34,046 nt of DNA from an uncultured Methanosarcinales archaeon (GTDB lineage: Archaea; Nanobdellota; Nanobdellia; Woesearchaeales; CAYNLP01). A model generated the notes under the pieces. The model was not told the DNA's origin. It made no database searches and saw only the letters and a list, made by a program, of their open reading frames with translations. This document shows positions 14,581-32,400 of this stretch, one piece after another. Numbering within the stretch: position 1 is the stretch's first letter; each line of letters opens with the position of its first letter. Location of the stretch: the NCBI GenBank assembly GCA_964398115.1, contig CAYNLP010000008.1, forward strand, positions 1-34,046, given 5' to 3'. The position numbers and the translations under genes were made by a program.

Positions 14581-17085
14581 TTAACCCTGCTGATAATTCT
14601 TTTGTAATTTCTTGTGGAAAGAAGTAACATCTTCAATATTATTAATTGTTAGCTCAGTAGTGCTGCTTCCTATAGTTTGAATTTTTACCTTGCCATTATC
14701 AAAAATTTTATTCAAGAATCCTTCTTCTTTTCCAATGAAGTCGATTTTAGGGAATATTATGGACTTCTGAACTTTGTAAAAAACTCCTCTTCTACCTACC
14801 ACTCGATAGCTCTGAATACTGTATGACTTATTCTTCAAATATATAACCATATAACCAAGCAAAGCCGCTCCTCCCAACCCAACCCATAGTTGGAAAGCTG
14901 GTACAAATAAAGTTACAAGAGCGATAAGGAAGAAAGAGGGGATCACATGGTTCCAGATATCCTGCTCAGATTCCAACGTAGATCGAGCATATTCCTCTGC
15001 TTTATCTTTTAAATCGTCAAATTCCTTAGCAGATGGGCGACTATAGAAAATCACGTCAATCAAGTCATCCATCACCCTTATACCAGGAACGTATGATACT
15101 TTGAAGCTATTAGAAGCAACTCTCTTATTCTTCCCAGAACCAACAATATGCTCTCCCGCAATATTAAATTTGATAGATCCATAACTACAGAAAGGCCATC
15201 TCTTCGTCTCGATATCCTTCACATCATCATATGAGATATGATACTGAGAAGTAAAAAATATGCCTTCTTTGAAATAAACATGATCATCAAAAAATGTGAG
15301 ACGCTGTCTATCAAAGTAAAACTTCTTGTAAACTGCTATTAAACCAACTGCAACAACTATAATAGCGGAGAGAACATACCAGCTTTTTATTAGGAAGAAA
15401 CTTAAAACACCTAATAATAGAACTGTTAGTGGCAAAAATGCTCTTATCATACGCGTAAAGCCAAACTCAGGTTGTATCTCATAAACTTTTTCTGAACCAC
15501 GAATATTCTTCTTCTCTAGAATCTGCTTAACTAACTTATCATCTTTAGCCACATTCTTAAAAGAAACGTCCTTAACGGATCCGATTGACAAAAACTTTAA
15601 GGTAAAAGTGTTGAAAATCCAATCTATCAAGTTTTCTTTCACAACTACGCCCGTGACTTTGTCAAAAGAAAACTCTCTGTTCTTTTCCCATAAAAATTCA
15701 AACCTCTCCTCAACCCCTTTTTTCCTTAGGTGGAAGGAGTAGAAGTGTACCTTTAGTCCTGCCCAAGCAATACTTAATAGAATAAATACAACAAAAAACG
15801 TTGCTAACACGGGAATGTTAAATAGCTGTAATGAAGTAGCAATCTGGGAGATGATTACAAGAGATAAGAAAAAACCTATAATAGCAGAAGAAAACGCTGT
15901 ACGTCCAAATTCCATATTTAATTCTCCTGTTACATCCGACACCGACCTCTCTACTTTTGATTCTCCCCCCTTTTGTAACGACCTTTCTGAAACGGTCTTA
16001 TCTTTCTGACTGATTAAACTATCAATATTTTCTTCCATCTCTTTTCCGTTACGTACATTCCTAAATGTGACCTCCCTACCAGCTCCAGGAGAACTTATAA
16101 CAATATTGTACAATCCAAGCATCTTCTCTACAACCCCACGAGTCGTTTCACTATCAGACAAGTTCTCTACCGGCAGAAAAGCCCGGTGCTTGGTTAGAAA
16201 TCCCTCTGTATAATCAATATTATCCTCATAAATAAAGTACTCTCTAAGACTAAGATCAATGGCGTAAAGTAGCAGATGAGTTATAGCACCTAATCCTAAT
16301 GGAATTCCAAATAACAATCCACTTGTTTCAAAATTGGAGGGCATAGAGGTTAGAGAACTAAATCCAACAACAAATAGTGCAAACAACACCCCTCTCGATT
16401 GTGATGAAATATTCATATAACCAGTGAGTAATGCGAAAGCCCCCATCCCAATGAGAAATCCACCTACTATGATTACAAAACTCCCCACGCTAGAACTTAA
16501 TAAAGTCGTTATAGCACGGCCAACAGAAGTTGAACCCACTATGGCTAACAACCCAGCAAATAAAAACAGAAGGCCAACATCGACAGCCACGCCAACTTTA
16601 TCGGGAGACTCTTTCTGAACTAGATCGTCACGAGATATTTCAAACCCAACACCTTGTAATAGTTCTTCCATGTAGCTATACATTTCATCAGGTTTATCAA
16701 CAGACCTTAACATAATCTCAGAACCCCCACCACCAGCAGCTTCTACAATGACATCCCCTGTGCTGAAAATCATATTTTCAAGAAAAGGCTTCTCTAACTT
16801 TACATGTGTGACATTCTTCAACATAAGTTCGGTTTCACTGTCACTAAAAATTGAACCTCGCTTCCAAATAACTCTGTCCTGTTCAAAGACATAATTCTCT
16901 TTCGAATAAGATATGAATAAAGAAAAAACCCTATAAATAAACCAAACTCCAACTATTATCGAAGTTACTAACCTAAAACCAAAGCTAAAACCAATAACTG
17001 CTAGTAAAGAAAAAAACAAGATAGACTTTATCAGATTATAATAAATAAAAGCGCTCTTATTCGGCTTTAATTCAAATTCGGACAT
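14581..17085 (-). CDS. Large membrane protein with multiple bacterial PH (bPH_2) domains
   Basis: About five TM-pair plus Y....(G.F)...I...K...(ifg.G.V.I) units; start ATG 17085 (MSEFELKP). Confidence 0.85.
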   Translation of the reverse strand: MSEFELKPNKSAFIYYNLIKSILFFSLLAVIGFSFGFRLVTSIIVGVWFIYRVFSLFISYSKENYVFEQDRVIWKRGSIFSDSETELMLKNVTHVKLEKPFLENMIFSTGDVIVEAAGGGGSEIMLRSVDKPDEMYSYMEELLQGVGFEISRDDLVQKESPDKVGVAVDVGLLFLFAGLLAIVGSTSVGRAITTLLSSSVGSFVIIVGGFLIGMGAFALLTGYMNISSQSRGVLFALFVVGFSSLTSMPSNFETSGLLFGIPLGLGAITHLLLYAIDLSLREYFIYEDNIDYTEGFLTKHRAFLPVENLSDSETTRGVVEKMLGLYNIVISSPGAGREVTFRNVRNGKEMEENIDSLISQKDKTVSERSLQKGGESKVERSVSDVTGELNMEFGRTAFSSAIIGFFLSLVIISQIATSLQLFNIPVLATFFVVFILLSIAWAGLKVHFYSFHLRKKGVEERFEFLWEKNREFSFDKVTGVVVKENLIDWIFNTFTLKFLSIGSVKDVSFKNVAKDDKLVKQILEKKNIRGSEKVYEIQPEFGFTRMIRAFLPLTVLLLGVLSFFLIKSWYVLSAIIVVAVGLIAVYKKFYFDRQRLTFFDDHVYFKEGIFFTSQYHISYDDVKDIETKRWPFCSYGSIKFNIAGEHIVGSGKNKRVASNSFKVSYVPGIRVMDDLIDVIFYSRPSAKEFDDLKDKAEEYARSTLESEQDIWNHVIPSFFLIALVTLFVPAFQLWVGLGGAALLGYMVIYLKNKSYSIQSYRVVGRRGVFYKVQKSIIFPKIDFIGKEEGFLNKIFDNGKVKIQTIGSSTTELTINNIEDVTSFHKKLQKNYQQG

Positions 17086-17194
17086 ATGACAAAGAAATGA
17101 AAGCATATATTTAAAAATCTTCTCTATCAAAAAAACTAATTCCGAAAATATTAACCTCAAATTTAAATAACTAAATCTTCTCTAAAAAAATTAT

Positions 17195-18487
17195 ATGTTC
17201 ATAGCCAAAACGTTGTCTTTCTACAAAAGGGAAGACATACAAGAAGCAATAGTAGAACACGCCAAGGATAAAGAAGTCGCGGTGATGTACGGCGACAGAG
17301 GCTTCGGCAAAAGACCACAAACACTCAGTTATAAGAATGACGTGTTAGAAGTAGCAAAGAACAAAGCAACAAGCCTCCACTGCAGCGAAGAACTATGGAA
17401 CAACCCTTCACAACTCAGCGCGGATATGAGAAGAGAAGAACTAGACGACCTCCGCAAAGGATGGGACTTTCTTTTAGACATTGACTGCACCATATTTGAA
17501 TACAGCAAAATCGCAGCATACTACGTCGTAAAAGCACTACAATACTGCGACGTAAACAAAGACTCAATCACCGTAAAATTCAGCGGAAACAAAGGATTCC
17601 ACATCGGCATACCATGGGAAGCATTCCCCAAAAAGGTACAAGGAGAAAAAACCAAAAAACTATTCCCCGAAGCACCGAAACGCCTCGCAGAATACGTCAA
17701 ATTCCTAATAAGACAACCCGTAAAAGAAGAAATCAAGAAACGAGAAGGCAAAGACATCGACAAAATAAGCGACAAAGTAAACATACCAATAGACGAACTC
17801 AAAAAAGAAACCACCACAGGAGGAGTAGACCTAAACCCTGCCCCATTCATAGAAATCGACACCCTACTAATAAGTAGCAGACACCTCTACCGAATGCCAT
17901 ACAGCTTCCACGAAAAAAGCCAACTAGTAAGCGTACCAATACAAAAAAACGAAATCTTAGACTTCGAAAAAGAAATGGCCGAACCCGAAAACGTAGAAGT
18001 AAACGCCCTCTTCATGAACCGCGACGTAAAAGAAGGAAACGCCAAAGGCCTATTCGTAAGAGCATACGACTACCAACCAGAAATAGAAACTGAAGAAGAC
18101 AAGAAAGACGACCGAACCTTCGAACTACCTGAACACGCCATAGAAGAAGAATGCTTCCCACCATGTATCAAAAAAATATTAGCCGGGCTAGATGACGGCA
18201 GAAAAAGAGCAGTTTTCATACTAATAAACTTCCTCAAAACCTGTGGTTGGGGACACGAAGAAATAAAACAAAAACTATACGACTGGAACGAAAAAAACAA
18301 AGAACCACTCAGAGAAGTATACATCAAAGGCCAACTCAGATACAGCAAAAACAAAGACCCAGTTCCCCCACCCAATTGTGAAAAGAAAGAATACTACAAA
18401 GACATCGGCGTGAAATGCCCCGACAAATACTGCCGATACAAAAACCCAGCAAACTACGCAAAGAAATGCCACGAAAAAGAAAACTAA
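17195..18487 (+). CDS. priS: Fused DNA primase PriS-PriL (DPANN type)
   Basis: AEP motifs WDFLLDID, KFSGNKGFHI and R.PYS.HEK, followed by the PriL Fe-S C-terminal domain FPPCI...PPPNC...C..C..KNP. Confidence 0.93.
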   Translation: MFIAKTLSFYKREDIQEAIVEHAKDKEVAVMYGDRGFGKRPQTLSYKNDVLEVAKNKATSLHCSEELWNNPSQLSADMRREELDDLRKGWDFLLDIDCTIFEYSKIAAYYVVKALQYCDVNKDSITVKFSGNKGFHIGIPWEAFPKKVQGEKTKKLFPEAPKRLAEYVKFLIRQPVKEEIKKREGKDIDKISDKVNIPIDELKKETTTGGVDLNPAPFIEIDTLLISSRHLYRMPYSFHEKSQLVSVPIQKNEILDFEKEMAEPENVEVNALFMNRDVKEGNAKGLFVRAYDYQPEIETEEDKKDDRTFELPEHAIEEECFPPCIKKILAGLDDGRKRAVFILINFLKTCGWGHEEIKQKLYDWNEKNKEPLREVYIKGQLRYSKNKDPVPPPNCEKKEYYKDIGVKCPDKYCRYKNPANYAKKCHEKEN

Positions 18488-18540
18488 TTGTAACTACTCT
18501 ACATCCATAAGCTTTATAAAGGGCACACTTTTCTCCAGAG

Positions 18541-18712
18541 ATGTCCCGGTCATAGACCGACTAGGGATATGCCTGAGAAAGACACTCTTCACATTCTGAA
18601 GAGGTCTGCAATAGGCGGTTGTCATACGCTCAAAGAACTTAGCAAGAGTTATCTCATCTCGACTCCCACCCGAGATGCAAACCGCAAATTCTCAGGCCGA
18701 AGAAGATCAAAA
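18541..18712 (+). ncRNA. Structured 5' leader of the rpl3 operon (candidate r-leader)
   Basis: TATA TTTATAAA at ~18513-18520. Paired segments: 18571-79/18689-97 (9 bp), 18585-91/18597-603, 18615-20/18680-85, 18655-61/18671-77, and a 5' hairpin at 18541-18570. Confidence 0.7.
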
Positions 18713-19699
18713 ATGGCAAAGAAAAGTTTTCCAAGAAGCGGAAGTATGCAATTTTGGCCTCGAAAAAGGTCTAAAAAGAGCTACGCTAGAATCAAGAATT
18801 GGCCAGACTCACAAAAACCAAAACCACTAGCCTTCGCCGGATACAAAGTCGGCATGACACACGTAATGGGAGTCGACAACACAAAAGACAGCCCGACAGA
18901 AGGCGAAGAAATACCATACCCAGTAACAGTGATTGAATGCCCACCACTAAGAATTGTTAGTGTAAGAACATACACCAAGAGGGGTGCTTCTCTACAAGTT
19001 TCTAACGAATACTTCGTTGGAGATCATAAAGATCTCGATCGAAAAATCGATGTCCCTGACAATACAGAAGAAGACCAAGTAGAAAATATTGAACCTGGCC
19101 AATATGAAGAAATCACAGTAACCGTACACACCATACCTAGCAGGACAGGAATTGAAAAGAAAACACCAGAAATTTTTGAACTACATCTCGGCGGCAATAA
19201 TTCTGAAAAACTAGAATTCATCCAAGACAACATAGGAAAAGACATCCCAGTTTCAGAAATTTATGAAGAAGGAGACCTAGTAGACGTTTATGGTATTACG
19301 AAAGGCAAAGGAACACAAGGCCCACTCAAAAGATTCGGAATCGGTCTCAAACCACACAAATCCGAAAAAGGAAGAAGAAGACCTGGAACACTCGGCGACT
19401 GGAAAAGACAACAACACAACATGCCAAGAGTGCCAATGGCTGGGCAAACTGGATACCAACAAAGAAGTGAAGAAAACCTACAAGTTCTAAAAATAAGTGA
19501 CGACCCAGACGAGATAAACGTCGAAGGCGGATATAAAAACTACGGCTTGGTCCAAAACGAATACATCCTAGTCAAAGGAAGCGTTCCAGGACCAAGCAAA
19601 AGAATGCTAATATTCACCAAACCAAGCAGGCCACCAAAGAAAAAACCAAGCCTGCCCACCATAAACTACATCAGCACGACAAGCAAACAAGGACGATGA
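18713..19699 (+). CDS. rpl3: 50S ribosomal protein uL3
   Basis: PRSGSMQFWPRKR, FAGYKVGMTH, TKGKGTQG and PMAGQTG; start placed at ATG 18713. Confidence 0.97.
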   Translation: MAKKSFPRSGSMQFWPRKRSKKSYARIKNWPDSQKPKPLAFAGYKVGMTHVMGVDNTKDSPTEGEEIPYPVTVIECPPLRIVSVRTYTKRGASLQVSNEYFVGDHKDLDRKIDVPDNTEEDQVENIEPGQYEEITVTVHTIPSRTGIEKKTPEIFELHLGGNNSEKLEFIQDNIGKDIPVSEIYEEGDLVDVYGITKGKGTQGPLKRFGIGLKPHKSEKGRRRPGTLGDWKRQQHNMPRVPMAGQTGYQQRSEENLQVLKISDDPDEINVEGGYKNYGLVQNEYILVKGSVPGPSKRMLIFTKPSRPPKKKPSLPTINYISTTSKQGR

Positions 19700-20505
19700 A
19701 AGTGAAAATACTAACTAAAGGAAGTACGGAAACAGGCGAGAAAGAACTACCAGACCAATTCCACGAGCCTGTACGACCAGATATTATCAAAAAAGCCGTC
19801 CGAGCCTTACAAGCGAGTAAAAGACAACCATACGGCGCTAAGAAAGGAGCAGGAATGAGACACTCAGCCGACCTAAGCAAGAAAAGAAGAGACTACCGAA
19901 CAAGCTACGGGTGGGGTATATCAAGAGTTCCAAGGAAAATCCTATCAAGAAGAGGGACCCGATTCAACTGGGAAGGGGCCATAGTATCCGGAACAGTCGG
20001 CGGACGAAGAGCCCACCCGCCAAAAGCAGAGAAAAAATGGGATATCAAAATCAATAAGAAAGAAAAGAGAAAAGCAATCCGAAGCGCGATGGCAGCAACA
20101 CAACAAAAAGAAATAGTAAACATGCGAGGACACAACACACCAGAAAACTACCCATTCATCGTAGAAACCGACTTAGAAGATATAGAAAAAACAAGCGAAT
20201 TAAAAGAAAAGTTAGAAAAACTCGGCTTTGAAGAAGAACTAGAAAGAACAAAAGAAAGTAAGGAAAGAAGTGGTAAAGGAAAGAACCGAGGACGAAGAAG
20301 AACATACAAAACCGGCTTGTTAATAGTGACGAAAGATGACGAAGCAGACATTATCAAAGCAGCAAACAACATTCCAGGGGTCGACGCAGTCTGCGTCAAA
20401 CGCTTAAACGCAGAAATCCTCGCACCAGGCACACACCCTGGCAGGATAACCTTATTCACTGAAGGCGCAATCGACGCGTTGGAAGAAGAGGAGCTGTTCC
20501 TATGA
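19696..20505 (+). CDS. rpl4: 50S ribosomal protein uL4
   Basis: VRPDII, GGRRAHPPK and LAPGTHPGR. Confidence 0.97.
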   Translation: MKVKILTKGSTETGEKELPDQFHEPVRPDIIKKAVRALQASKRQPYGAKKGAGMRHSADLSKKRRDYRTSYGWGISRVPRKILSRRGTRFNWEGAIVSGTVGGRRAHPPKAEKKWDIKINKKEKRKAIRSAMAATQQKEIVNMRGHNTPENYPFIVETDLEDIEKTSELKEKLEKLGFEEELERTKESKERSGKGKNRGRRRTYKTGLLIVTKDDEADIIKAANNIPGVDAVCVKRLNAEILAPGTHPGRITLFTEGAIDALEEEELFL

Positions 20506-20753
20506 GTGTAATCAAATATCCACTAAGCACGGAAAAAAGTATAAGACAAATGGAAAGTGAAAATAAACTTCAATTCGTCGTAGATATGAATGCGAACAAA
20601 ACACAAATCAAACAAGATATGGAAGAATTATTCGATTGTAAAATCGAAAACGTGCACACTTTGATAGATTCGAAAGGCAGGAAAAAAGCATACATCAAAT
20701 TCGGAGCGGAAACACCCGCCATTGACATAGCAACTCAATTGGGGATGATGTAA
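20502..20753 (+). CDS. rpl23: 50S ribosomal protein uL23
   Basis: IKYPLSTEK..., KKAYIK; operon position. Confidence 0.96.
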   Translation: MSVIKYPLSTEKSIRQMESENKLQFVVDMNANKTQIKQDMEELFDCKIENVHTLIDSKGRKKAYIKFGAETPAIDIATQLGMM

Positions 20754-20755
20754 AA

Positions 20756-21484
20756 ATGGGTAAAAACTTAATCCAACAAAAAAGAGGAAAAGGAAGTCCT
20801 AGCTACAGGAGTCCAAGCTTTCGATTCGCAGGAGCAGCAGGAGTAGAAGACAAAGACGCATACCAAATACTAGAACTACTAAAAGACCCTGCACACACCG
20901 CACCAGTAGCCAAGGTAGAATACGACGACGGGACATACGGAATCGTAATCGCACCCGAAGGAGTAAGGGAAGGGGAAGAATTCGAAATTGAAGATGGAGA
21001 AGTCAAAAGAGGAAATGTATTGAAACTAGACAACATCCCAGTTGGAACGAAAGTATTCAATATCGAAAAACAACCAGGCGACAAAGGAAAATTCGCAAGA
21101 AGCGGAGGAACAAGCGCAAAAGTCGTCGGAAAAGGCGACGGAGAAGTCATGGTACAACTACCCAGCAAACAAGTAAGAAGCTTCCACCCCGAATGCAAAG
21201 CCACAGTAGGCGTTGCAGCAGGAGGAGGAAGGACAGAAAAACCAATGATGAAAGCCGGAAACATGCACAAGAAGAGAAAAGCAAGAAACAAACTATATCC
21301 AAAAGTTTCCGGAGTGGCAATGAACAGTCTAAGCCACCCATTCGGTGGAACATCAAGCAGTCACAAAGGACGACCTACAATCGCCCCTAAGAACGCACCG
21401 CCTGGAAGAAAAGTTGGAAAGATCAGGCCTAAAAAGACAGGTCAAACCAAAGGCAGAAGCAAAAAGGAGAAAGATGAAAGCTAG
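20756..21484 (+). CDS. rpl2: 50S ribosomal protein uL2
   Basis: MGKNLIQQKRGKG, GVAMN..HPFGG and APPGRKVG. Confidence 0.97.
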   Translation: MGKNLIQQKRGKGSPSYRSPSFRFAGAAGVEDKDAYQILELLKDPAHTAPVAKVEYDDGTYGIVIAPEGVREGEEFEIEDGEVKRGNVLKLDNIPVGTKVFNIEKQPGDKGKFARSGGTSAKVVGKGDGEVMVQLPSKQVRSFHPECKATVGVAAGGGRTEKPMMKAGNMHKKRKARNKLYPKVSGVAMNSLSHPFGGTSSSHKGRPTIAPKNAPPGRKVGKIRPKKTGQTKGRSKKEKDES

Positions 21485-21496
21485 GTGATACCAAAA

Positions 21497-21883
21497 ATGG
21501 CAAAAGACGAATTCAAATATCGAGGAAAAACATTAGAAGAACTTCAAGATTTAAGCTTGAACGAACTAGCAAAACTATTACCTAGCAGACAAAGAAGAAA
21601 GATCAAGAGAGGATTCGACGACGACAAAAAAGCACTTATGAAAAAAGTCGAAAACAACGACACTGTCAAAACACATCAAAGAGACATGATAGTACTCCCC
21701 AACTGGGTTGGCAAAACTATAAAGGTTTACGACGGAGAAGAATTCCGACCAGTAACAATAGAACCCGCCCACATCGGACACTACTTGGGCGAACTAGTAC
21801 TAACAAGAGAAAAAGTCGAACACAGCGCACCAGGTGTCGGTGCGACAAGATCAAGCACAGCAATCGTTGCAAGAGCAAAGTAA
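21497..21883 (+). CDS. rps19: 30S ribosomal protein uS19
   Basis: FKYRGKTLEEL, KTHQRDM, GHYLGE and PGVGATRS; SD AGGTGA before ATG 21497. Confidence 0.97.
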   Translation: MAKDEFKYRGKTLEELQDLSLNELAKLLPSRQRRKIKRGFDDDKKALMKKVENNDTVKTHQRDMIVLPNWVGKTIKVYDGEEFRPVTIEPAHIGHYLGELVLTREKVEHSAPGVGATRSSTAIVARAK

Positions 21884-21884
21884 A

Positions 21885-22568
21885 ATGGGACAAAAATACA
21901 CATTTCAAGGAAGCGAGCAACACACGGCTAAAGCACTTGGCAAAAGCCTCCCTATCAGCACTAAGCACAGCATAGAAATCTGCAAAGCCATCAAAGGGAG
22001 ACACATCAACAACGCCAAGAAAATGCTAGAAAAAGCTGCTAAAGAAGAAGAACCCATAAGCTTCACACGCTTCACCGAAGGAGCAGGTCACAAACCAAAC
22101 ATAGGAATGGGTAAGTTCCCAGTCAAAGCCTGCAAAAACATACTACAAATAGTAGAAAGCGCAGAAGCAAACGCACAAAACCAAGGACTAAGCAGCGACC
22201 TGAAAATAATAAGTGCTGTGGCAAACGAAGGACCACAAAGCTTCCGATACGGCAGGCACAGAGGACGAAAAGAAAAAAGCACACACGTCGAAATAGTGGT
22301 CCGAGAAGTACAACCAGAAGAACCAGAAATCGAAGAAGTAGAAGAAAAAGAAACAGAATCAGAGGAAACCCAAGAAAAAGAAGAAAGCGAAGACAAAGAA
22401 GAAGAGGGAGAAGATAAAGAAATCCCTGCTAGGAGCACTATAGAAAACAAGACTAAAGATGAAATTAAAGAATATGCAAGTGAAGAATGGAATATTGAAC
22501 TATCAACGAATGATTTGAAGGATGAAATGATCGACCAGCTATTCGAGGAAATCGGTGATAACAAATGA
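21885..22568 (+). CDS. rpl22: 50S ribosomal protein uL22 with acidic linker and C-terminal repeat module
   Basis: ISTKHSIEIC, GKFPVKA, SAEANA and THVEIVV, then a ~80-aa extension. Confidence 0.96.
   Translation: MGQKYTFQGSEQHTAKALGKSLPISTKHSIEICKAIKGRHINNAKKMLEKAAKEEEPISFTRFTEGAGHKPNIGMGKFPVKACKNILQIVESAEANAQNQGLSSDLKIISAVANEGPQSFRYGRHRGRKEKSTHVEIVVREVQPEEPEIEEVEEKETESEETQEKEESEDKEEEGEDKEIPARSTIENKTKDEIKEYASEEWNIELSTNDLKDEMIDQLFEEIGDNK
22416..22568 (+). repeat. 50-aa module, copy A (C-terminus of uL22)
   Basis: [50 protein letters not shown]. Confidence 0.95.
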
Positions 22569-23505
22569 TCGAAAGAAAATTCATACAACAAAACATGATG
22601 CAACAAAGGATTAAAGAATTCGTCAGCAACCAGCTCAAACGAGCAGGTCTAAGCGACGTAGACTTCCAAAGAACACCTTTGGGAGAAAAAATAGTCATAT
22701 ACGCGTCCAGACCAGGACTAGTAGTAGGAAGAGGAGGAAGCAATATTGCACAACTAACACAAGACCTCAAAGAAGAATTCGACTTGGAAAACCCACAAGT
22801 AGAAATCGAAGAAGTAGAAGAACCAGACCTCGACCCTAAAATAATCGCAGAAACCGTAGCAAACAGCCTCGAAAGATTCGGACCAACAAGGTTCAAAGGA
22901 ATAGGATACAGAGCCTTAAACGACGCAATGGACGCAGGAGCTCGAGGAGTAGAAATAGTTATCAGCGGACGAGTACCAAGCAGTCGAGCAAGAACATGGA
23001 GATTCTACGCAGGATACCTCAAAAAAGCAGGTGAAACCAGCATATCAAAAGTAAAAGAAGGATTCCACCTAGCAGTTATCAAAGCAGGAAGCGTCGGAAT
23101 AAAAGTAAGAGTCATGCCACCCGACGTAAGACTACCAGACGACGTAGAAATCAAAGGCGAAGACATTGGAGTCGAAGAAGTAGAAGACGAAGACACCCAA
23201 GAAGAAATAGAAGAAGCAAAGAAAGAAGCAGAAGAAGTCAAAGAAGAAATAGAAAAAGTGGAAGAAAAAGAAGAACCGGAAGAAAGCGAAGAAAGTCAAG
23301 AAGATGAAGAAGAGAAAGACGTACCGGCTCGAAGCACAGTCAAAAACAAGACCAAAGACGAAGAAATTGAACTCACGTACCAGCTCAGTGAACGCNNNNN
23401 NNNNNAGAATACGCAGCAGATGAGTGGAACGTTGAACTCAGCACTAACGACTTGAAGGATGAAATGATTGACCAACTATTCGAAGAAATAGGTGAAAACG
23501 AATGA
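22565..23505 (+). CDS. rps3: 30S ribosomal protein uS3 with acidic linker and C-terminal repeat module (spans an assembly gap)
   Basis: RTPLG, RPGLVVGRGG and GVEIVISG. After the N-gap, another frame reads [32 protein letters not shown] and stops at 23505, overlapping the rpl29 ATG. Confidence 0.93.
23315..23505 (+). repeat. 50-aa module, copy B (C-terminus of uS3), interrupted by the gap
   Basis: KDVPARSTVKNKTKDE..[gap]..[32 protein letters not shown]. Confidence 0.9.
23396..23405. other. Scaffold gap (10 N)
   Basis: Run of N bases. Confidence 1.
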
Positions 23506-23687
23506 AATACGAACGTATAAAGGATATGTCCCAAGAAGAAAAAATGGAACAGATAAGAGAAGCAGAAATGGAACTCATCAAACTATACAGTCAAGTCAGT
23601 ACTGGGACACCGCCAGAAAACCCTGGCAAAATAAAAAACTTAAGGAGGACGATCGCCCGTATAAAGACGGCACTAAAAAATGAGTGA
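23502..23687 (+). CDS. rpl29: 50S ribosomal protein uL29
   Basis: ENPGKIKNLRRTIARIKT. Confidence 0.96.
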   Translation: MKYERIKDMSQEEKMEQIREAEMELIKLYSQVSTGTPPENPGKIKNLRRTIARIKTALKNE

Positions 23688-23988
23688 AGTATGCGGAAAG
23701 TGCGGATTACCTGAAGACCTTTGCGTCTGCGAAGATATCGCAAAGGAACAACAAACCATTACAGTAACAACAGAAAAACGAAAGTTCGGCAAAGACTACA
23801 CAGTGATTGAAGGCTTGAAAGAAAGCGAGATTGACATGAAAGATCTCGCAAAAAAACTGAAAACACAGTTCGCCTGCGGAGGCACTGTGAAAGAAGGAAA
23901 GATAGAACTTCAAAGAGACCACACAAAGGAAATCAAATCCGTACTTGTAGAAGAAGGCTTCCCACCTGAAAGCATACAGGTAAAATGA
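23680..23988 (+). CDS. sui1: Translation initiation factor aIF1 (SUI1)
   Basis: CGKCGLPEDLCVC, LAKKLK..FACGGT and IELQ.DH. Confidence 0.95.
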   Translation: MSEVCGKCGLPEDLCVCEDIAKEQQTITVTTEKRKFGKDYTVIEGLKESEIDMKDLAKKLKTQFACGGTVKEGKIELQRDHTKEIKSVLVEEGFPPESIQVK

Positions 23989-24212
23989 AACGGGAAGAAA
24001 TCATAGGTAAGACGATGAAAGTAGTAGATTCAAATAATCAGGACATAGTAGGCATCTGCGGAAAAGTCGTGGATGAAACTAGAAACACGTTTAAGATAAA
24101 AAACGACAATATAAAGACCATACTTAAAAAAGGCACTACATTCCGTATCGACGACGAAACAATAGAAGGAGACGAGATAATGATGAGACCTGAAGAAAGG
24201 GTGAAACTATGA
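23985..24212 (+). CDS. rnp1: Ribonuclease P protein component 1 (Rpp29/Pop4)
   Basis: EIIG...VVDS.N...GI.GKVVDETRNT and RPEERVK. Confidence 0.92.
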   Translation: MKREEIIGKTMKVVDSNNQDIVGICGKVVDETRNTFKIKNDNIKTILKKGTTFRIDDETIEGDEIMMRPEERVKL

Positions 24213-24802
24213 GCAAAGTAGTACAAGAAGGATGGAAACCAGAAGAAACATGCGAAGATGACAAATGCCCATACCACGGCAGCCTGTCACTACGAGGAAG
24301 AACCTTCACCGGAAGAGTAACCGGAGACAGGATGAGAAAAACAATAACCGTCGAATGGGATACTAAAAAGAAATATCCAAAATACGAAAGATTTGCTAGA
24401 ACCACTGCAAGTATCAAAGCACACAATCCACCTTGTATAGACGCAGAAACAGGACAAACCGTGAAAGTAGCAGAAACCAGAAGGCTATCCAAAACTAAAA
24501 ACTTCGTAGTAGTAGAAATAATCGATGAAGATACAACAATAATTGAAAGCGAAGAACCAAGCGCAGTGACAGAAGAAAAAGAAGGGCCAGAAGAGAAAGA
24601 ACCGGAAGAAAGCGAAGACACAGAAGAAACAAAAGAAGATGAAGATGAGAAAGAAGTCCCGCCAAGAAGTTCGGTAGAAAGAATGACCAAAGACGAAATC
24701 AAACAATATGCTGACGACCACTGGAATGTTGAACTATCAACGAACGATTTAAAGGATGAAATGATTGACCAACTATTCGAAGAAATAGGTGATCAAGAAT
24801 GA
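24209..24802 (+). CDS. rps17: 30S ribosomal protein uS17 with acidic linker and C-terminal repeat module
   Basis: [21 protein letters not shown] and [13 protein letters not shown], then a ~90-aa extension. Confidence 0.96.
24650..24802 (+). repeat. 50-aa module, copy C (C-terminus of uS17)
   Basis: [50 protein letters not shown]. Confidence 0.95.
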
Positions 24803-25200
24803 AAGCCGTAAAAAGCAAGATTGCAAAAGGACTAAGCGTAGGAAGCACTATACCCACCGCCGATAACAGTGGAGCGAAAAAAGTAGAAATCATTAGCGTA
24901 AAAGGACAAAAAGGAGTTAAAGGAAGAAGCAGCAAAGCAGGCGTTGGAGACATGGTAATGGTAGCAGTAAAGAAAGGAAGGCCAGACATGAGAAGAAGAG
25001 TAGTACCAGCCGTTATAGTAAGACAGAAAAAGCCATACCGAAGACCAGACGGAACTCGTATAAAATTTGAAGACAACGCCGCAGTTGTACTAAAAGATGA
25101 ACAAGGAAATCCAAAAGGAACAATATTCAAAGGACCAATCGCCAGAGAAGCCTGCGAAAGGTGGCCTGGCGTTGCAAAAGTAGCAAAGATAATAGTGTGA
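24799..25200 (+). CDS. rpl14: 50S ribosomal protein uL14
   Basis: [14 protein letters not shown] and KGPIARE. Confidence 0.97.
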
Positions 25201-25206
25201 TACAAA

Positions 25207-25584
25207 ATGACTGAATTCAACAAAAGCTGGAAGTCAAGTAAGAAACCAAAAAAGCAGAGGAAGTATAGACAAAACGCTCCTAAACACATCCAAGGAAACT
25301 TTTTGAAAGCTCACCTCAGCGAAGAACTCAGAGAAAAATACGATAAAAGAAGTTTAAGATTGAGAAAAGGAGACATGGTAGAAATAATGAGAGGAGACTA
25401 TAAAGGTGAACAAGGAGAAGTAGAACTAATAGATACAGACGAACAAAAAGTATACATAAGCAATATAGAAGTTACGAGAAGAGACGGTTCAAAAAGTAAA
25501 CCACCAGTTAAACCATCCAACCTAAAAATTACAGAACTAAACAAAGACGATCCAAGAAGGATAGAAGAGGTCGATACAGAATGA
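25207..25584 (+). CDS. rpl24: 50S ribosomal protein uL24
   Basis: SKKPKKQRK and the KOW motif RKGD.VEIMRG. Confidence 0.96.
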   Translation: MTEFNKSWKSSKKPKKQRKYRQNAPKHIQGNFLKAHLSEELREKYDKRSLRLRKGDMVEIMRGDYKGEQGEVELIDTDEQKVYISNIEVTRRDGSKSKPPVKPSNLKITELNKDDPRRIEEVDTE

Positions 25585-26261
25585 CAAGACATCACTTGAA
25601 GAGACTGCCCGCACCACAAACCTGGAGAGTAGGAAAGAAGAAAGAAACCTACGTCACCAGGCCAAAACCAGGAGCGCACAGCCTAGACCTCGGAATGAGC
25701 CTAGACACAGTTTCAAAATACGTCGGATTGACAGAAACCAAAGCAGAACTCAAAAACATACTACAAAATAAAAACTTACAAGTCGATGGCAAACAAAGAC
25801 ACGACGTTAAACTACCAGTAGGATTTATGGACGTCTTAAGCATTCCAGAAGATGACATATACTACAGAATCGTAATGAGCAGCAAAGGACTAGAAGCTCT
25901 CGAAATAAGTGAAGACGAAGCCAAGGTCAAACCAGTAAAAATCACTGGCAAAACCAAAATCAAAGGGGGAAAGACACAAATACAAACACTTGACGGTCGA
26001 AACATAACACTTGACGAAGACAAATACCAAGTAGGAGACACTTTACTAATACAAATACCAAGTCAAGAAATAGAAGAACACGTCAAACTTGAAAAAGGAA
26101 ACAAAATACTCCTATACAAAGGACGACACGCAGGAGAAATTGGAGAAGTCCAAGACATAGAAAGAGATAAGCTAACCTTCAAAAGCGGCGATGAAGCATT
26201 CGAAACAAGAAAAGAATACGCTTTCGTAATAGGAGAAGACGAACCAATAATCGAGTTATAA
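25581..26261 (+). CDS. rps4e: 30S ribosomal protein eS4
   Basis: HLKRL.AP..W, PVGFMDV, DGRN and FETRKEYAFVIG. Confidence 0.96.
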   Translation: MTRHHLKRLPAPQTWRVGKKKETYVTRPKPGAHSLDLGMSLDTVSKYVGLTETKAELKNILQNKNLQVDGKQRHDVKLPVGFMDVLSIPEDDIYYRIVMSSKGLEALEISEDEAKVKPVKITGKTKIKGGKTQIQTLDGRNITLDEDKYQVGDTLLIQIPSQEIEEHVKLEKGNKILLYKGRHAGEIGEVQDIERDKLTFKSGDEAFETRKEYAFVIGEDEPIIEL

Positions 26262-26265
26262 AAAA

Positions 26266-26784
26266 ATGGCACAACAAAACCAGATGAAGGAAGTTCGAAT
26301 CGAAAAGGTCACGCTAAACATAGGAGCAGGAAACGACCAAGAAAAGCTAAACAGAGGAGTACAACTACTCGAACACATAACAGGGATTGAACCAGTAAAG
26401 ACATACGCAAAAGAAAGAGTCCCAAGCTGGGACATCAGACCCGGACTTCCAATAGGATGCAAGATAACACTCAGAGGAGAACAAGCAAGAGAACTACTAC
26501 CTAACCTGTTAGAAGCAAAAGACGATAAACTACCAGCTAGCAGTTTCGACGACCACGGAAACGTCAGCTTCGGAATACAAGAATACATTGACGTAGGCGA
26601 CGTAGAATACGACCCAGAAATAGGAATGATGGGATTCCAAGTATGCATAACATTAGAAAGGCCAGGTTACAGAGTTGAAGACAGAAAAGTGAATAGCAGT
26701 AAAGTAGCTAGCAAACACAAAGTAGATCAAGACGCAGCGATAGAATTCTTCGAAGAAGAATTCGACGTCGAGGTGGAATATTAA
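26266..26784 (+). CDS. rpl5: 50S ribosomal protein uL5
   Basis: [29 protein letters not shown] and YDPEIG. Confidence 0.97.
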
Positions 26785-26785
26785 C

Positions 26786-27016
26786 ATGACACAATCAAAC
26801 TGGAAAAAAATGTTGAAACAACTGGAAGAAAAACCAGGAAAGATGGAAAAAGCACAGAAACACAACAAACCCAAAGACCGTAACAGTGGAGAAGACAAAT
26901 ACCACTGTAGAAGATGTGGTCGGACAGGAGGCCACATACACAAATACGGCCTTCACCTATGCAGGCAGTGCTTCAGAGAAATAGCGACAGAGATAGGATT
27001 CAAAAAATACAGTTAG
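26786..27016 (+). CDS. rps14: 30S ribosomal protein uS14 (Zn-binding, N-terminally extended)
   Basis: CRRCG...[15 protein letters not shown]. Confidence 0.96.
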
Positions 27017-27028
27017 AGGAGATACAAA

Positions 27029-27421
27029 ATGACACTAAACGATCCAATGGCAAACGTGCTTTCAAAAATTAAGAATTACGAAAACCAAGGTGAGAAAGTA
27101 GTTGAAACTAGACACAGCAGTAAAGTAGTGAAGAAAGTCTTAGACATCATGAACGAAAAAGGATACATTGGAGACTATGAAGAAATAGAAGACAGCAAAG
27201 GAAACATTTTGAAAATAAAACTTATCGGAAACATCAACGATACAGGAGTTATCAAACCAAGATTCAGCTTGAAAAAGAACGAATTCGAAAAATGGGAGCA
27301 AAGATACCTCCCAGCAAAAGACTTTGGTATAATAATACTAAGCACAAGTCAAGGAATAATGACACACTACCAAGCAAAAGAAGAAGGAATCGGAGGCAGA
27401 CTCTTAAGTTACTGCTACTAA
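27029..27421 (+). CDS. rps8: 30S ribosomal protein uS8
   Basis: DPMANVLS.I.N, IKPRF, YLPA and GGRLL.YCY. Confidence 0.97.
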   Translation: MTLNDPMANVLSKIKNYENQGEKVVETRHSSKVVKKVLDIMNEKGYIGDYEEIEDSKGNILKIKLIGNINDTGVIKPRFSLKKNEFEKWEQRYLPAKDFGIIILSTSQGIMTHYQAKEEGIGGRLLSYCY

Positions 27422-27425
27422 AAAA

Positions 27426-27974
27426 ATGCCTAGGAAAAACTTCGAATTGGAAGTTGCAATCCCAGAAGGAGTCGAGGTTTCTGTAGACAACGGTGTTTTC
27501 ACCGTTAAAGGAGACAAAGGAGAAGTCACGAGAGACTTGTTCCACCCAAGAATAGATGCTAAAGTGGAAAACGGGAATATAGTGTTCCACGTAGAAAACT
27601 GTACAAACAGAGAAAGAAAACTAGTCCACACTTACAGAGGACACGTTAAAAACTTATTCAAAGGAGCAAGTGAAGGAATCAAGTACAAACTACAAGTATG
27701 CGCAAGTCACTTCCCAATGGACGTCAACTATAACAATAACGAATTACAAGTAGAAAACTTCATAGGAGAAAGAACACCAAGAACTTTAGAAATCCCCGAG
27801 GGTGTAGATGTAAAAGTTGACGGTGACGAAATAATATTAGAAGGTGTAGACAAAGAAAAAGTCGGTCAAACCGCTGGCAGTATAGAAAACCTATGCAAAA
27901 GAAGAGGATATGACAGAAGAGTATTCCAAGACGGTATATACATAATAGAAAAAGACGGTAAGGAGCTGGTCTAA
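27426..27974 (+). CDS. rpl6: 50S ribosomal protein uL6
   Basis: HFPM, NFIGE, VGQTA and DRRVFQDGIYI. Confidence 0.97.
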   Translation: MPRKNFELEVAIPEGVEVSVDNGVFTVKGDKGEVTRDLFHPRIDAKVENGNIVFHVENCTNRERKLVHTYRGHVKNLFKGASEGIKYKLQVCASHFPMDVNYNNNELQVENFIGERTPRTLEIPEGVDVKVDGDEIILEGVDKEKVGQTAGSIENLCKRRGYDRRVFQDGIYIIEKDGKELV

Positions 27975-28544
27975 ATGGATAAAGAAGAATTACTCAAAAA
28001 AAGAAAGGAACTGAAAAACAAGAAGCCAGACTTTACCAGAACAGACAGTCACAAGAAAGACCGTATCGGAAATAGTTGGAGAAACCCTCGAGGACTACAA
28101 AACAAGATGCGGTTAAACAAAAGAGGATACAACAAGTGCGTACGTACAGGATGGGGCAGTCCAAAAGCGGTCAAAGGACTACACCCAACCGGTCTGGAAC
28201 CTATCAGAGTTCACAACACCAACGATTTAGAAGACATAGACGAAGAACTACAAGGAATCATAATAGCTTCAAACGTTGGAGATAGGAAAAGAGTGAAAAT
28301 AATTGAAGAAGCACAAGAAAGAGATATATCAATACTAAACCTCGACGGTGACGAATACCTAGAAAAAGTTGAACAAAAAATCGAAAAACGACAAGAGAAA
28401 AGAAAGAAACGAGAAGAAAAAAGAAAAGAAAGAGAAAAACAAGCTGAAGAAACCAGTGATGACGAAGAAAAAATTGATCCAGAAGAACAAAAGAAGAAAG
28501 AAAAAGAACAAATGCAAAAAGTCGTTGAAAAAGGTGAACAATAA
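27975..28544 (+). CDS. rpl32e: 50S ribosomal protein eL32 with a charged C-terminal extension
   Basis: KKPDF.R, WRNPRG.QNK.R and GLHPTG. Confidence 0.95.
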   Translation: MDKEELLKKRKELKNKKPDFTRTDSHKKDRIGNSWRNPRGLQNKMRLNKRGYNKCVRTGWGSPKAVKGLHPTGLEPIRVHNTNDLEDIDEELQGIIIASNVGDRKRVKIIEEAQERDISILNLDGDEYLEKVEQKIEKRQEKRKKREEKRKEREKQAEETSDDEEKIDPEEQKKKEKEQMQKVVEKGEQ

Positions 28545-28996
28545 TGGATTTAACCTTACAAAAAAGGCTAGCAGCGGACGTACTCGACGTAAGCAAGAAA
28601 AGAGTGAAGATGGAACCAGCCAGACTCAACGACATAAGCGAAGCCATAACCAAAACAGACATTCGAGAACTCATAAGCGAAGGAGCAATATGGAAAGAAC
28701 AAAAGAAAGGAGTAAGCAGAGCACGAGCTAACCAAAATCAAAGACAAAAAAGCAAAGGCTTACAAAAAGGAGACGGAAGCCGAAAAGGAACACCAACAGC
28801 GAGGAAAAAAAGCAAAGACAGGTGGATGGATAAAGTAAGAGCACAACGAAAATTCCTCAAAAAACTAAAAGAAAACAACCACGTCGACAACCAAACTTAC
28901 AGAAAACTATACAAAATGGTAAAAGGCGGATATTTCAGAAGCAAAAGACACATCAAACTATACATGGAAGAAAGAGACTTAGGTGATAGACAATGA
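28544..28996 (+). CDS. rpl19e: 50S ribosomal protein eL19
   Basis: LQKRLAA, GSRKG...AR and YRKLY..VKGG.F. Confidence 0.97.
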   Translation: MDLTLQKRLAADVLDVSKKRVKMEPARLNDISEAITKTDIRELISEGAIWKEQKKGVSRARANQNQRQKSKGLQKGDGSRKGTPTARKKSKDRWMDKVRAQRKFLKKLKENNHVDNQTYRKLYKMVKGGYFRSKRHIKLYMEERDLGDRQ

Positions 28997-29481
28997 GGCA
29001 CAACATGAAACGCTTACCCAGGAAGAGAAGAAAACAAAGCAAAACCAACTATGAAAAAAGGTTAAGCCTACTAAAAAGTGGAAAGCCAAGGCTAGTAGTA
29101 AGAAAAACCAATAAGAAAATAATCGCACAACTAATCGAATACCATCCAGACGGAGACAAAGTAGTGACAAGCGCATACAGCACAGACCTAGAAAAACATG
29201 GTTGGGAAGGAAGCTACAACAACACACCAGCCGCATACCTAACAGGAATGCTAATAGCAGAAAAAGCAAACGACGCAGGAATAAAAGAAGCAGTGTTAGA
29301 CATTGGATTGAACACCCCTGTTAAAGGAGCCAGAGTGTTCGCCGTTGCAAAAGGAGCAAACGACGCAGGCTTAGACGTGAACGTAAGCGAAGAAATCGCT
29401 CCAAGCGAAGAAAGAATAGAAGGAAACCACATCAGCGAAGATATGAAGAAACAATTCGAAAAGGTCAAGGAGGCAATCTAG
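28993..29481 (+). CDS. rpl18: 50S ribosomal protein uL18
   Basis: KTNYEKRL.LLKS, RLVVRKTN, NTPAAYLTG and LDIGL. Confidence 0.96.
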   Translation: MRHNMKRLPRKRRKQSKTNYEKRLSLLKSGKPRLVVRKTNKKIIAQLIEYHPDGDKVVTSAYSTDLEKHGWEGSYNNTPAAYLTGMLIAEKANDAGIKEAVLDIGLNTPVKGARVFAVAKGANDAGLDVNVSEEIAPSEERIEGNHISEDMKKQFEKVKEAI

Positions 29482-29483
29482 AA

Positions 29484-30221
29484 ATGGCTGAAGAACAAGA
29501 AGAACCTGAAGAGGAAGAACTCCTCCCCAAATGGGAGCCAAGAACCAAACTAGGAAGAAAAGTAAAGAACAGAGAAATTAGAGACATCGACGAAATCCTC
29601 GACAGAGGAGAAGTAATAATGGAAGAAGAAATAGTAGACGCACTCCTAGACCTAGAAGACGACTTAATCCTAGTAGGACAAAGCAAAGGAAAATTCGGAG
29701 GAGGACAAAGAAGAGTATTCAAACAAACACAGAAAAAGACCAGAGAAGGAAACAAACCAAGCTTTACTGCAATGGCTGTAGTTGGCGACCGAAAAGGACA
29801 CTTCGGAACAGGACTAGGAAAAGCAAAAGAAACCGTGCCGGCAAGAGACAAAGCACAAAGAACCGCCAAGAAAAACTTATTCAAGATTAGAAGAGGATGC
29901 GGAAGTTGGAGATGTGGATGTCAAGGACCACACAGCATCCCCTTCGCAGTAGAAGGCAGATGCGGAAGTGTAAGAATAAAACTAATGCCAGCGCCAAAAG
30001 GCAAAGGACTAGTAACAGAAGGCGAAGTTCAAAAAGCACTCGAACTCGCAGGTATCGAAGACGTTTGGAGCAAAACATTCGGACACACTGAAAACAAGAT
30101 AAACCTTATCAAAGCGTTAGAAGACGCGTTAAGAAAACTAATGACAACCAAACTCAACGCAGAAAGTAATCAAAACATCAAAGTATACGAAGGCAGTATA
30201 GAGGGAGACCATGGCGTCTAA
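29484..30221 (+). CDS. rps5: 30S ribosomal protein uS5
   Basis: WEPRTKLGR, RGCGSW.C.C..PHSIP and PAPKG.GLV. Confidence 0.97.
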   Translation: MAEEQEEPEEEELLPKWEPRTKLGRKVKNREIRDIDEILDRGEVIMEEEIVDALLDLEDDLILVGQSKGKFGGGQRRVFKQTQKKTREGNKPSFTAMAVVGDRKGHFGTGLGKAKETVPARDKAQRTAKKNLFKIRRGCGSWRCGCQGPHSIPFAVEGRCGSVRIKLMPAPKGKGLVTEGEVQKALELAGIEDVWSKTFGHTENKINLIKALEDALRKLMTTKLNAESNQNIKVYEGSIEGDHGV

Positions 30222-30570
30222 AATAGCAGCAGTATTGATAAGAAGCAGAGCAGGAGTGCAAAAGAAGATGAGCGATACTTTAGACATGCTTAAACTAAAT
30301 CAAAAACATAGTTGCGTCGTCATGGAAGACACGGAAAGCAACCGAGGCATGCTAGAAAAAGTACAAGGCCTAGTAACATGGGGCGAAATAAGTGATGAAA
30401 CCGTAGAAGAACTACAAGAAGAAAAGGACAGCAAAGATGGAAAACACTTCAACCTCCAACCGCCAAAAGGAGGTTTTGAAAGAAAAGGTATAAAAACTCC
30501 ATACAAGAAAGGAGGAGCCCTTGGTTATAGAGGAGAAGACATGAACGATTTGATAAGGAGGATGTTATGA
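30211..30570 (+). CDS. rpl30: 50S ribosomal protein uL30 (short archaeal form)
   Basis: DTL.ML.L, GML.KV..LVTWGE, F.L.PPKGG and GGALGYRG. Confidence 0.95.
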   Translation: MASKIAAVLIRSRAGVQKKMSDTLDMLKLNQKHSCVVMEDTESNRGMLEKVQGLVTWGEISDETVEELQEEKDSKDGKHFNLQPPKGGFERKGIKTPYKKGGALGYRGEDMNDLIRRML

Positions 30571-30995
30571 CTAACAAAAAGAAAAGGCAAAGAGGAAGCC
30601 ACACACACGGAGGCGGCAGTAAGAAAAAACGCCGTGGTGCAGGAAACCGCGGAGGTAGAGGCAGAGCTGGAACTGGCAAGAAAGGAGATCAGAAAAAACC
30701 CAGCTACTGGAAAGAAAAGAAAAAGAAAGGTTTCAAAAGCCTCCAACAAAAAAAAGGCAAGCCTGACGTTATCAACATCTCTCAACTTAACGAAACACTA
30801 GACAATTTGAAAGAAAAAGGCTTAATCGAAAAAGAAAACGGACAATACCAAGTCGACCTAAAAGAACTCGGTTATGGAAAATTGTTAGGCGCTGGAAGTC
30901 CAAAAGAAGAATACAATATAAAGGTTGAAAAAGCAAGTGACAGCGCCGTTGAAAAAGTTGAGGACAACGGCGGAAACGTCGAACTCCTAGGATAG
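30567..30995 (+). CDS. rpl15: 50S ribosomal protein uL15
   Basis: RGSHTHGGG.KKKRRGAG.RGGRG.AG and KLLG.G. Confidence 0.96.
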   Translation: MTNKKKRQRGSHTHGGGSKKKRRGAGNRGGRGRAGTGKKGDQKKPSYWKEKKKKGFKSLQQKKGKPDVINISQLNETLDNLKEKGLIEKENGQYQVDLKELGYGKLLGAGSPKEEYNIKVEKASDSAVEKVEDNGGNVELLG

Positions 30996-30998
30996 AAA

Positions 30999-32366: not shown

Positions 32367-32400
32367 CTTATTTAAACAAGAGGTGGTTTAGGGAGAATCT

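Follow-up and report, generated by a model that had tools for sequence, protein, structure and literature searches.

A short RNA motif in the 5' leader of the rpl3 operon, retained and covarying upstream of rpl3 across an order of archaea, was identified in the window, i.e., the whole stretch of DNA analysed (34,046 nucleotides). The motif comprised a 5' hairpin (P0) and a 46-nt core, and the comparison of genomes makes it very likely a real, conserved cis-acting RNA of the rpl3 operon, as regards both its existence and its placement. It is read here, with a probability of about 0.6 based on sequence comparison, as a cis-acting autoregulatory leader of ribosomal protein (r-protein) genes, forming a family not described before in a DPANN order whose records are mostly titled Woesearchaeota or Nanoarchaeota. 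The preliminary description of this DNA had put forward a candidate new DPANN r-protein leader, and this central idea was supported by the absence of Rfam matches, by the conservation of the motif in relatives, and by covariation. The conserved new leader RNA thus stood; the large multibranch structure described there did not stand as the conserved unit, and was replaced by the 5' hairpin and the 46-nt core.

Few RNA regulators of r-protein synthesis are known in Archaea. The present motif was short, strongly covarying and present in more than 100 species of a major uncultivated lineage. As a defined 46-nt RNA it is suited to binding studies, for which natural variants are available (the simple form, the form with a CAGUAC insertion, copies with and without a U run, and copies with and without a distal competitor strand). 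It may offer a handle on the balance of ribosome production in archaea with reduced genomes, and is a useful marker for annotating the start of the rpl3 operon in MAGs of this lineage.

Conserved Core Motif

The core motif occupied positions 18571 to 18616 of the + strand (46 nt), as delimited by the covariance model, by covariation and by folding. Its outer helix P1 (GCCU.../...AGGC) paired GCCUG at 18571-18575 with UAGGC at 18612-18616 (+ strand), as supported by covariation. An internal loop (18576-18579 and 18608-18611, + strand), A-rich in the alignment of relatives, separated P1 from the variable hairpin P2 (18580-18591 with 18597-18607, + strand), which was also supported by covariation. 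Folded alone, positions 18571-18616 had a free energy of -21.3 kcal/mol. The plan common to the family was P1 as GCC.../...GGC, a 5' loop strand UGARAA, a variable P2, and a 3' loop strand (C)AAUA(AA)A. Among the 87 aligned copies, 77 had UGAAAA or UGAAAAA as the 5' loop strand, and the 3' strand read AAUA(AA)A-GGC.

The motif occurred in two forms. In 65 of the 87 aligned copies, P2 enclosed an additional hairpin and an invariant UUUUCAGUAC was present (CAGUAC insertion), and a plain P2 hairpin was present in the window, in the nearest genome, which belongs to the same genus (G001), in G002, and in about twenty other copies. For the inner hairpin P3, support in a crude test was weak (32 of 65 observed, 21.7 expected).

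In copies of the CAGUAC form, the loop strand CUGAAAA and a UUUUCAG inside P2 were both invariant and perfectly complementary, and in several species a further CUGAARAA-like copy, the third, was present on the 3' side of P2, a layout that permits alternative pairings. The alternative hairpin CUGAAAA/UUUUCAG was 91% complementary in this form, with both sides nearly invariant; because of this near invariance, covariation was uninformative on that hairpin.

Covariation of the Core Helices

Relatives were found through their L3 protein, which gave 30 rpl3 loci, and were then searched with the regular expression CCTGRRAA. Nearly all of the 30 loci had 150 to 850 nt free of long open reading frames (ORFs) 5' of rpl3, and CCTGRRAA was present 60 to 250 nt 5' of the ATG in 22 of them. 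In a plain MAFFT alignment of those 22 sequences (alignment A1), with P1 and P2 drawn by hand, 79.2% of the cells paired, vs. 29 to 50% when the 3' partner was slid by one to three columns, and the covariation score was 0.382, vs. 0.07 to 0.17 in the slid controls.

A covariance model (R1) was built from A1 and run over 93 loci, with L066 (from the unpublished genome G133) excluded. The 87 matches aligned to R1 (alignment A3) had 89.8% of their cells paired, vs. 18 to 53% when slid, in an alignment that was fitted to the model and hence favours the structure. The covariation score of A3 was 0.570 (0.04 to 0.17 when slid), a value reached by none of 500 shuffles. All six modelled pairs of P2 changed on both sides, in 22 to 34 sequences each (A3). 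In P1, 95.8% of the cells paired, the two central C-G pairs being invariant and the outer pairs covarying. The motif was thus kept upstream of rpl3 in relatives and covaried there, as a candidate r-leader had been expected to do.

RNAalifold, applied to a structure-free MAFFT alignment of 58 sequences, recovered P1 (5 bp, including the U-A pair) and four pairs of P2, with compensatory changes. It predicted no pairs on a first mixed MAFFT alignment, in which P2 was misaligned, and was uninformative on the pair formed by the genome of the window (G000) and G001, where MAFFT shifted the motif.

Operon and Start of rpl3

The first gene of the operon was rpl3 (uL3; 18713 to 19699, + strand; Pfam Ribosomal_L3, 5.3e-67), followed on the same strand by rpl4 (19696-20505; Pfam L4, 4.5e-39), rpl23 (20502-20753; Pfam L23, 2.6e-16) and rpl2 (20756-21484; Pfam L2_C, 2.2e-39). 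Downstream of rpl2, the ORF map showed densely packed + strand ORFs to approximately 33153. The rpl3-led operon, of about 14 kb, encoded some two dozen ribosomal proteins and SecY, and was AT-rich, with many T runs.

The rpl3 start at 18713 (MAKKSFPRSGSMQFWPRKRS) aligned with the L3 N-termini of the loci of 29 relatives, and in all of the 30 loci the N-termini aligned at a MAKK.../MP...PR.GS.Q.WPRKRA start. A coding reading of the region, by which rpl3 begins at 18569 with an N-terminal extension of 48 amino acids, would be consistent with the in-frame ATG at 18569 and with the lack of a stop codon until 18713, but among the 30 L3 loci a long in-frame upstream start was present only in the window's own, the extension had no Pfam match, and the changes between species preserved base pairs, not codons. 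This reading is extremely improbable.

Occurrence among Genomes

A search with R1 of 151 complete sets of contigs from the order (whole genomes; strict Infernal filters, E ≤ 0.01) yielded 89 matches, distributed over 87 genomes, 85 of which had one match and two of which had two. Eighty-four of the 89 matches lay directly 5' of rpl3 on the same strand, with a median gap of 60 nt to the L3 match; without the unpublished genomes G122 and G133, the corresponding figure was 82 of 87. The model had been built without 66 of the 84 genomes with a match upstream of rpl3. The five remaining matches were weak, and corresponded to coding sequence or to simple A/U hairpins. The neighbouring gene on the upstream side varied among loci while the adjacency to rpl3 held.

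Of the 151 genomes, 149 yielded an L3. The window's own copy escaped the strict filter, and small sets searched under default filters added matches in G000, G026 and G032. With the filters off, a match (E ≤ 0.01) was obtained at 23 of 48 further loci upstream of rpl3, in each case on the strand of rpl3, and the GCCUG hallmark was present in nearly all of them. Strict and laxer searches combined, the motif was present in at least 110 of the 149 genomes with L3, and 39 of the 149 had no match at the thresholds used.

The copy in the window scored 31.3 bits with R1 (18562-18622), the best match genome-wide, and in G000, G001 and G002 alike the top whole-genome match was the one at rpl3. A second match in G000 (C36:4855-4936; 25.7 bits) had no GCCUG and overlapped the 3' end of an ORF that looked like a ribosomal protein gene. 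In locus L069 (genome G138), a second, weaker match (991-1051, + strand; 29.7 bits) was located about 500 nt upstream of the main motif (1501-1592).

In a phylum-wide sample, 40 of 151 genomes had a match; all 40 were labelled as of the same order, and the other 111 had no stated order. An exact-pattern scan with one genome per species gave at least 120 stretches, 80 of them listed, and 50 among the 80 listed stretches had a full R1 match (E ≤ 0.001). Among those 50 listed matches the record titles were Candidatus Woesearchaeota (21), Nanoarchaeota or Nanoarchaeia (6), "archaeon" (2), "uncultured Methanosarcinales archaeon" (20), and a bacterium (1, a weak match). Other bacterial records among the listed stretches were set aside as chance matches to the seed pattern. 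The 20 records titled "uncultured Methanosarcinales archaeon" (loci L189-L259) had scores like those of records titled Woesearchaeota, and their titles may not reflect their lineage. A BLAST-type DNA search of the leader against 41 relatives matched only the start of the rpl3 coding sequence and generic promoter words.

Promoter and Place within the mRNA

A TATA word (CTTTATAAA) was present at 18512-18520 (+ strand), 193 nt before the ATG, in agreement with the long leader that had been noted initially. From the position of this word, the most likely start of transcription is some 25 nt further on, near 18541-18546. In 76 of 84 loci a strong TATA word (counted as CTTTATAWA, TTTATAAA, TTTATATA and CTTTAAAWA) stood 45 to 128 nt 5' of the CCUG of the motif; the stretch from the motif to the rpl3 ATG contained one in 2 of 86. 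The density of these words was 11.6 per kb upstream of the motif vs. 0.39 in the gap. Because TATA words were found upstream of the motif and almost never in the gap, the motif was taken to be part of the rpl3 leader, transcribed through into rpl3. P1 lay a median of 55.5 nt from the start codon, and in 12 of 86 loci the spacing was below 30 nt. Between the motif and the ATG the sequence was only mildly structured (median z = -1.04), and a word resembling a Shine-Dalgarno (SD) sequence occurred in 30 of 86 loci only.

The alternative of an independent ncRNA, raised in the preliminary description, was disfavoured by the scarcity of promoter words in the gap and by the 12 short gaps. Such a gene would consist of P0 and the core (about 80 to 140 nt), with its own promoter, would end at the oligo-U stretch after P1, and would be no more than syntenic with rpl3 while acting in trans, e.g., in ribosome biogenesis. 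It would agree with the strong promoter word upstream of the motif, with the structured 5' end, and with the T runs after P1: archaeal RNA polymerase terminates at oligo-T, and P1 was followed by at least five T in 29 of 86 loci (12 T in L027) and by at least four in 40. It would not agree with the TATA words of the gap, which were found in those two loci only and so would leave rpl3 without a promoter of its own, nor with the 46 of 86 loci with fewer than four T after P1. The window, where P1 was followed by GGCGGTTGTC and there was no T run, was one of these 46. Part of the T run extended P1. Same-strand, immediate adjacency to rpl3 was also maintained by 84 of the 89 matches in spite of the varying upstream neighbour. 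A separate ncRNA gene is therefore unlikely, and the motif is treated in what follows as a part of the rpl3 leader.

P0 (18541 to 18570, + strand; from the minimum free energy [MFE] structure) preceded the core. In relatives, the hairpin at the position of P0 had a median z of -2.46, with z < -1 in 62 of 73 loci, and its sequences differed. Because a hairpin recurred in the same place across species, the 5' hairpin was considered a conserved feature. In many species (e.g., L040, L057, L081, L086 and L126), P0 was formed by a recurring palindrome, GUGUUUAAA...UUUAAACAC or GUAUUUAAAU...AUUUAAAUAC, which might just as well act at the DNA level, as an operator that overlaps the transcription start or as a second TATA-like element. 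The P0 sequence of the window differed from this palindrome.

Full-Length Fold of the Leader

Positions 18541-18712 of the + strand had an MFE of -56.6 kcal/mol, compared with a mean of -38.0 (sd 4.23) for dinucleotide shuffles (z = -4.40), and none of 200 shuffles folded as well. The minus strand was less exceptional (z = -2.16; 4 of 200 shuffles). All stems named in the preliminary description were present in the ViennaRNA MFE structure of 18541-18712 (+ strand): the 5' hairpin (18541-18570); a 9-bp closing stem, GCCUGAGAA/UUCUCAGGC (18571-18579 with 18689-18697), enclosing three branches; the hairpin AGAC-A-CUCUUCA/UGAAGAG-GUCU (18580-18591 with 18597-18607) as branch 1; and the stem GCGGUU/AACCGC (18615-18620 with 18680-18685) as branch 2, holding the two small hairpins AACUU/GAGUU (18636-18640 with 18646-18650) and CAUCUCG/CGAGAUG (18655-18661 with 18671-18677), all on the + strand. 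The domain closed by GCGGUU/AACCGC (18615 to 18685, + strand, with the hairpins 18636-18650 and 18655-18677 inside) was lineage-specific. The last paired base was 18697, and the structure ended 15 nt before the ATG at 18713, as had been described.

The distal strand UUCUCAGGC (18689 to 18697, + strand) was complementary to 18571-18579 and competed with the local P1. As the local P1 uses 18571-18575, it excludes the 9-bp closing stem, and the two are mutually exclusive. The distal pairs had probabilities of 0.70 to 1.00 in the full-length ensemble. Every prefix of the leader up to 18688 folded with the local P1, and when 18689-18697 were present the distal stem replaced P1; the full leader had -56.6 kcal/mol with the distal stem vs. 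-48.8 kcal/mol with P1 forced.

In G001, whose L3 was only 60% identical, P0, GCCUGAGAA, a fully covaried P2, CAAUAGGCGGUU, AACCGC and UCUCAGG were kept around a different, shorter insert, and the MFE structure had the same three-way layout, with a 7-nt equivalent of the distal strand. As conserved parts of the leader, the closing stem and GCGGUU/AACCGC did not hold beyond the genus, recurring in the congener G001 only, and the two inner hairpins were absent even from G001. Among relatives, a distal complement of at least 6 nt to the loop strand occurred in 12 of 82 loci, and was better than in shuffles (p ≤ 0.05) in 7 of 82; as a general feature it was rejected.

The multibranch fold is a genus-level elaboration and, on folding models, possibly a switch. 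The stronger claim, that the multibranch fold of 18541-18712 is itself the functional unit and the local P1 irrelevant, would draw on its being the MFE structure (z = -4.40), on the high probabilities of the distal pairs, and on the fact that G001 retains, with the three-way layout, both the closing-stem sequences (7 nt) and those of GCGGUU/AACCGC. It is very improbable: the order-wide partner of GCC(U) was the local (A)GGC, with the outer pairs of P1 covarying; the distal complement was rare; the closing stems of G000 and G001 were identical and hence gave no covariation; and the two inner hairpins were missing from G001. The 5' hairpin with the local core is the conserved unit.

Comparison with Known RNAs

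The novelty proposed in the preliminary description was borne out by the absence of Rfam 15 matches at the gathering score in the whole window. There were likewise no Rfam 15 matches at E ≤ 10 in positions 18400-18800, and none at the gathering score upstream of rpl3 in the loci of 20 relatives, where three tRNAs were matched elsewhere. ARAGORN found no tRNA or tmRNA.

In a comparison with rRNA, nhmmer with the motif profile gave a 17-nt match in one of three 23S rRNAs (E = 0.015), without conservation in the remaining two, as well as a second match at E = 1.6; in three 16S rRNAs nothing was below E = 3. Given these weak, non-conserved 23S matches and the lack of any in 16S, mimicry of rRNA at the level of sequence was judged not convincing by profile search. 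By eye, the 23S rRNAs at about 486-528 (G018 numbering) read (C)UGAAAAG, a hairpin, and AAAAG-(N)CCUGAAA, which recalls the "UGAAAAG, P2, AAUAAAAG" of the motif, A-rich strands being common in rRNA.

Two classes of RNA were considered and rejected. The motif resembled kink-turn (L7Ae) sites in having an asymmetric internal loop of three or more nucleotides between a GC helix and a second helix, and GCC-UGA-GA... of the window was superficially like a C-stem, a bulge and G.A. Kink-turns have tandem sheared G.A and A.G pairs next to a 3-nt bulge; here the first position after the bulge was A, not G (77 of 87 copies), and the opposite strand was U/A-A, not G-A, so the tandem G.A pairs were missing. 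Guide sRNAs have either box C (RUGAUGA) and box D (CUGA), or an ACA box 3' of a pocket hairpin. The motif had no Rfam match of snoRNA type, and contained CUGA but no box C; the sequence after P1 was U-rich, not ACA.

The survey of r-protein leaders by Eckert and Weinberg (2020; PMC7247131) reports, in its available text, four archaeal leaders among 20 new candidates. According to the same text, the L4 candidate of Archaeoglobi was the only archaeal leader of that survey placed before rplC/rplD, and was rated "?" (borderline covariation), its ligand being proposed by analogy with bacterial L4 alone (PMC7247131). As far as that candidate is described there, it is like the present motif in being archaeal and located upstream of rplC, rplD, rplW, rplB and the rest of the operon, but belongs to another lineage, and the covariation of the present motif was far broader and stronger. 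Since the present motif had no Rfam 15 match, it was not considered a member of the Archaeoglobi L4 candidate. Woesearchaeota, Pacearchaeota and Nanoarchaeota go unmentioned in the available portions of the survey (PMC7247131), and no paper tying Woesearchaeota or DPANN to such leader RNAs was found in the open-access and bioRxiv literature.

In the S10-operon leader of E. coli, as far as the accessible text of the source covers it, uL4 acts both on transcription, through an attenuator hairpin with a terminator, and on translation (PMC10931766). In common with the present leader, that text presents a long structured 5' UTR before an operon with rplC and rplD (PMC10931766). In the present leaders, too, a hairpin precedes a U run, in 29 of 86 loci but not in the window. 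The two differ in that there was no homology of sequence or structure and no Rfam match, and in that the archaeal operon begins with rpl3, not with rpsJ. Termination in archaea is not known to rely on NusA or on hairpin terminators of the bacterial kind. The S15 r-leaders of Methanomicrobia and Halobacteria, in the parts of the survey available, are archaeal like the present motif, and the poly-U that follows the Methanomicrobia motif, regarded there as possible intrinsic termination signals, is paralleled by the U stretch after the motif here; those leaders differ in lying before rpsO, in having another fold, and in their clear mimicry of a 16S junction, no such mimicry being found here (PMC7247131).

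Proposed Regulation

The nascent RNA would first form P0, and then the core with P1, the asymmetric A-rich loop, and P2. The invariant loop, framed by covarying helices, is a predicted protein site, and its protein would most likely be an r-protein of the operon; that the ligand is an r-protein is probable. By analogy with bacteria, uL4 is a candidate, and uL3, the product of the nearest gene, and others are possible too. When in excess over rRNA, the protein would bind the leader and expression of the operon would fall.

The read-out probably differs between lineages. With the motif 9 to 30 nt from the start codon, binding might block initiation, and where P1 is followed by an oligo-U run an early stop of transcription might result. 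The typical motif, at about 55 nt from the start codon, was too far for direct occlusion of the ribosome-binding site. In the genus of the window, the leader could act as a refolding switch, from the local P1 of the nascent RNA to the distal stem (18571-18579/18689-18697) of the complete leader; the distal stem would destroy P1 and leave free the last 15 nt, with their weak SD word. As the U run was present in a minority of loci and the distal complement was rare, no single expression platform was conserved.

A lesser possibility is that the leader binds something other than an r-protein, i.e., that it is a small-molecule riboswitch, the target of a non-ribosomal regulator, an element of RNA stability or processing, or a device by which RNA polymerase would withstand the many oligo-T runs of the operon. 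The conservation, covariation and placement of the motif would suit any cis-acting function equally, no mimicry of rRNA was found, and P0 is a possible 5' stabiliser. In bacteria, terminators come after the known antitermination RNAs, and the T run often found right after the motif is similar in this respect. The motif was nevertheless small, with one loop between two helices, as is usual for protein sites, and less elaborate than most riboswitch aptamers; it was also single-copy and tied to one r-protein operon, whereas metabolites and global regulators usually control several loci. There is only a slim chance that the motif, instead of sensing feedback, acts on archaeal RNA polymerase, as a protein-dependent attenuator at oligo-U or by processive antitermination across the T runs of the operon; if so, it would be the first attenuator or antitermination signal of this kind for Archaea. 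The autoregulatory r-protein leader is retained as the preferred reading.

Translation Signals and Flanking Genes

A putative weak SD word, GAAGAUC (18702 to 18708, + strand), preceded rpl3, as judged from a comparison of the sequences upstream of 25 genes; its spacing equalled that of GGUGAUC ahead of other genes of the operon. GGUGAU(A/C) was present at about -12 to -7 before many operon-internal genes (19696-32401 of the window). In three relatives the 16S 3' end (GGAUCACCUCCU) complements motifs of the GGUGAUC type. The short spacing between TATA box and start, described initially for many genes, was seen here for two, those at 17195 and 32401, each with a TATA-like word some 30 nt upstream and lacking a motif of the GGUGAU(A/C) type.

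The gene just 5' of the leader (17195-18487, + strand; 430 amino acids) had two primase matches in Pfam, to the small-subunit family (residues 112-249; E = 1.9e-5; 25.5 bits, with a cut-off of 26.8) and to the large-subunit family (residues 304-398; E = 2.1e-6), and on these matches its product looks like a fused PriS-PriL primase. Upstream of it, on the opposite strand, an ORF of 859 amino acids with many hydrophobic stretches extended over positions 14581-17160 (- strand).
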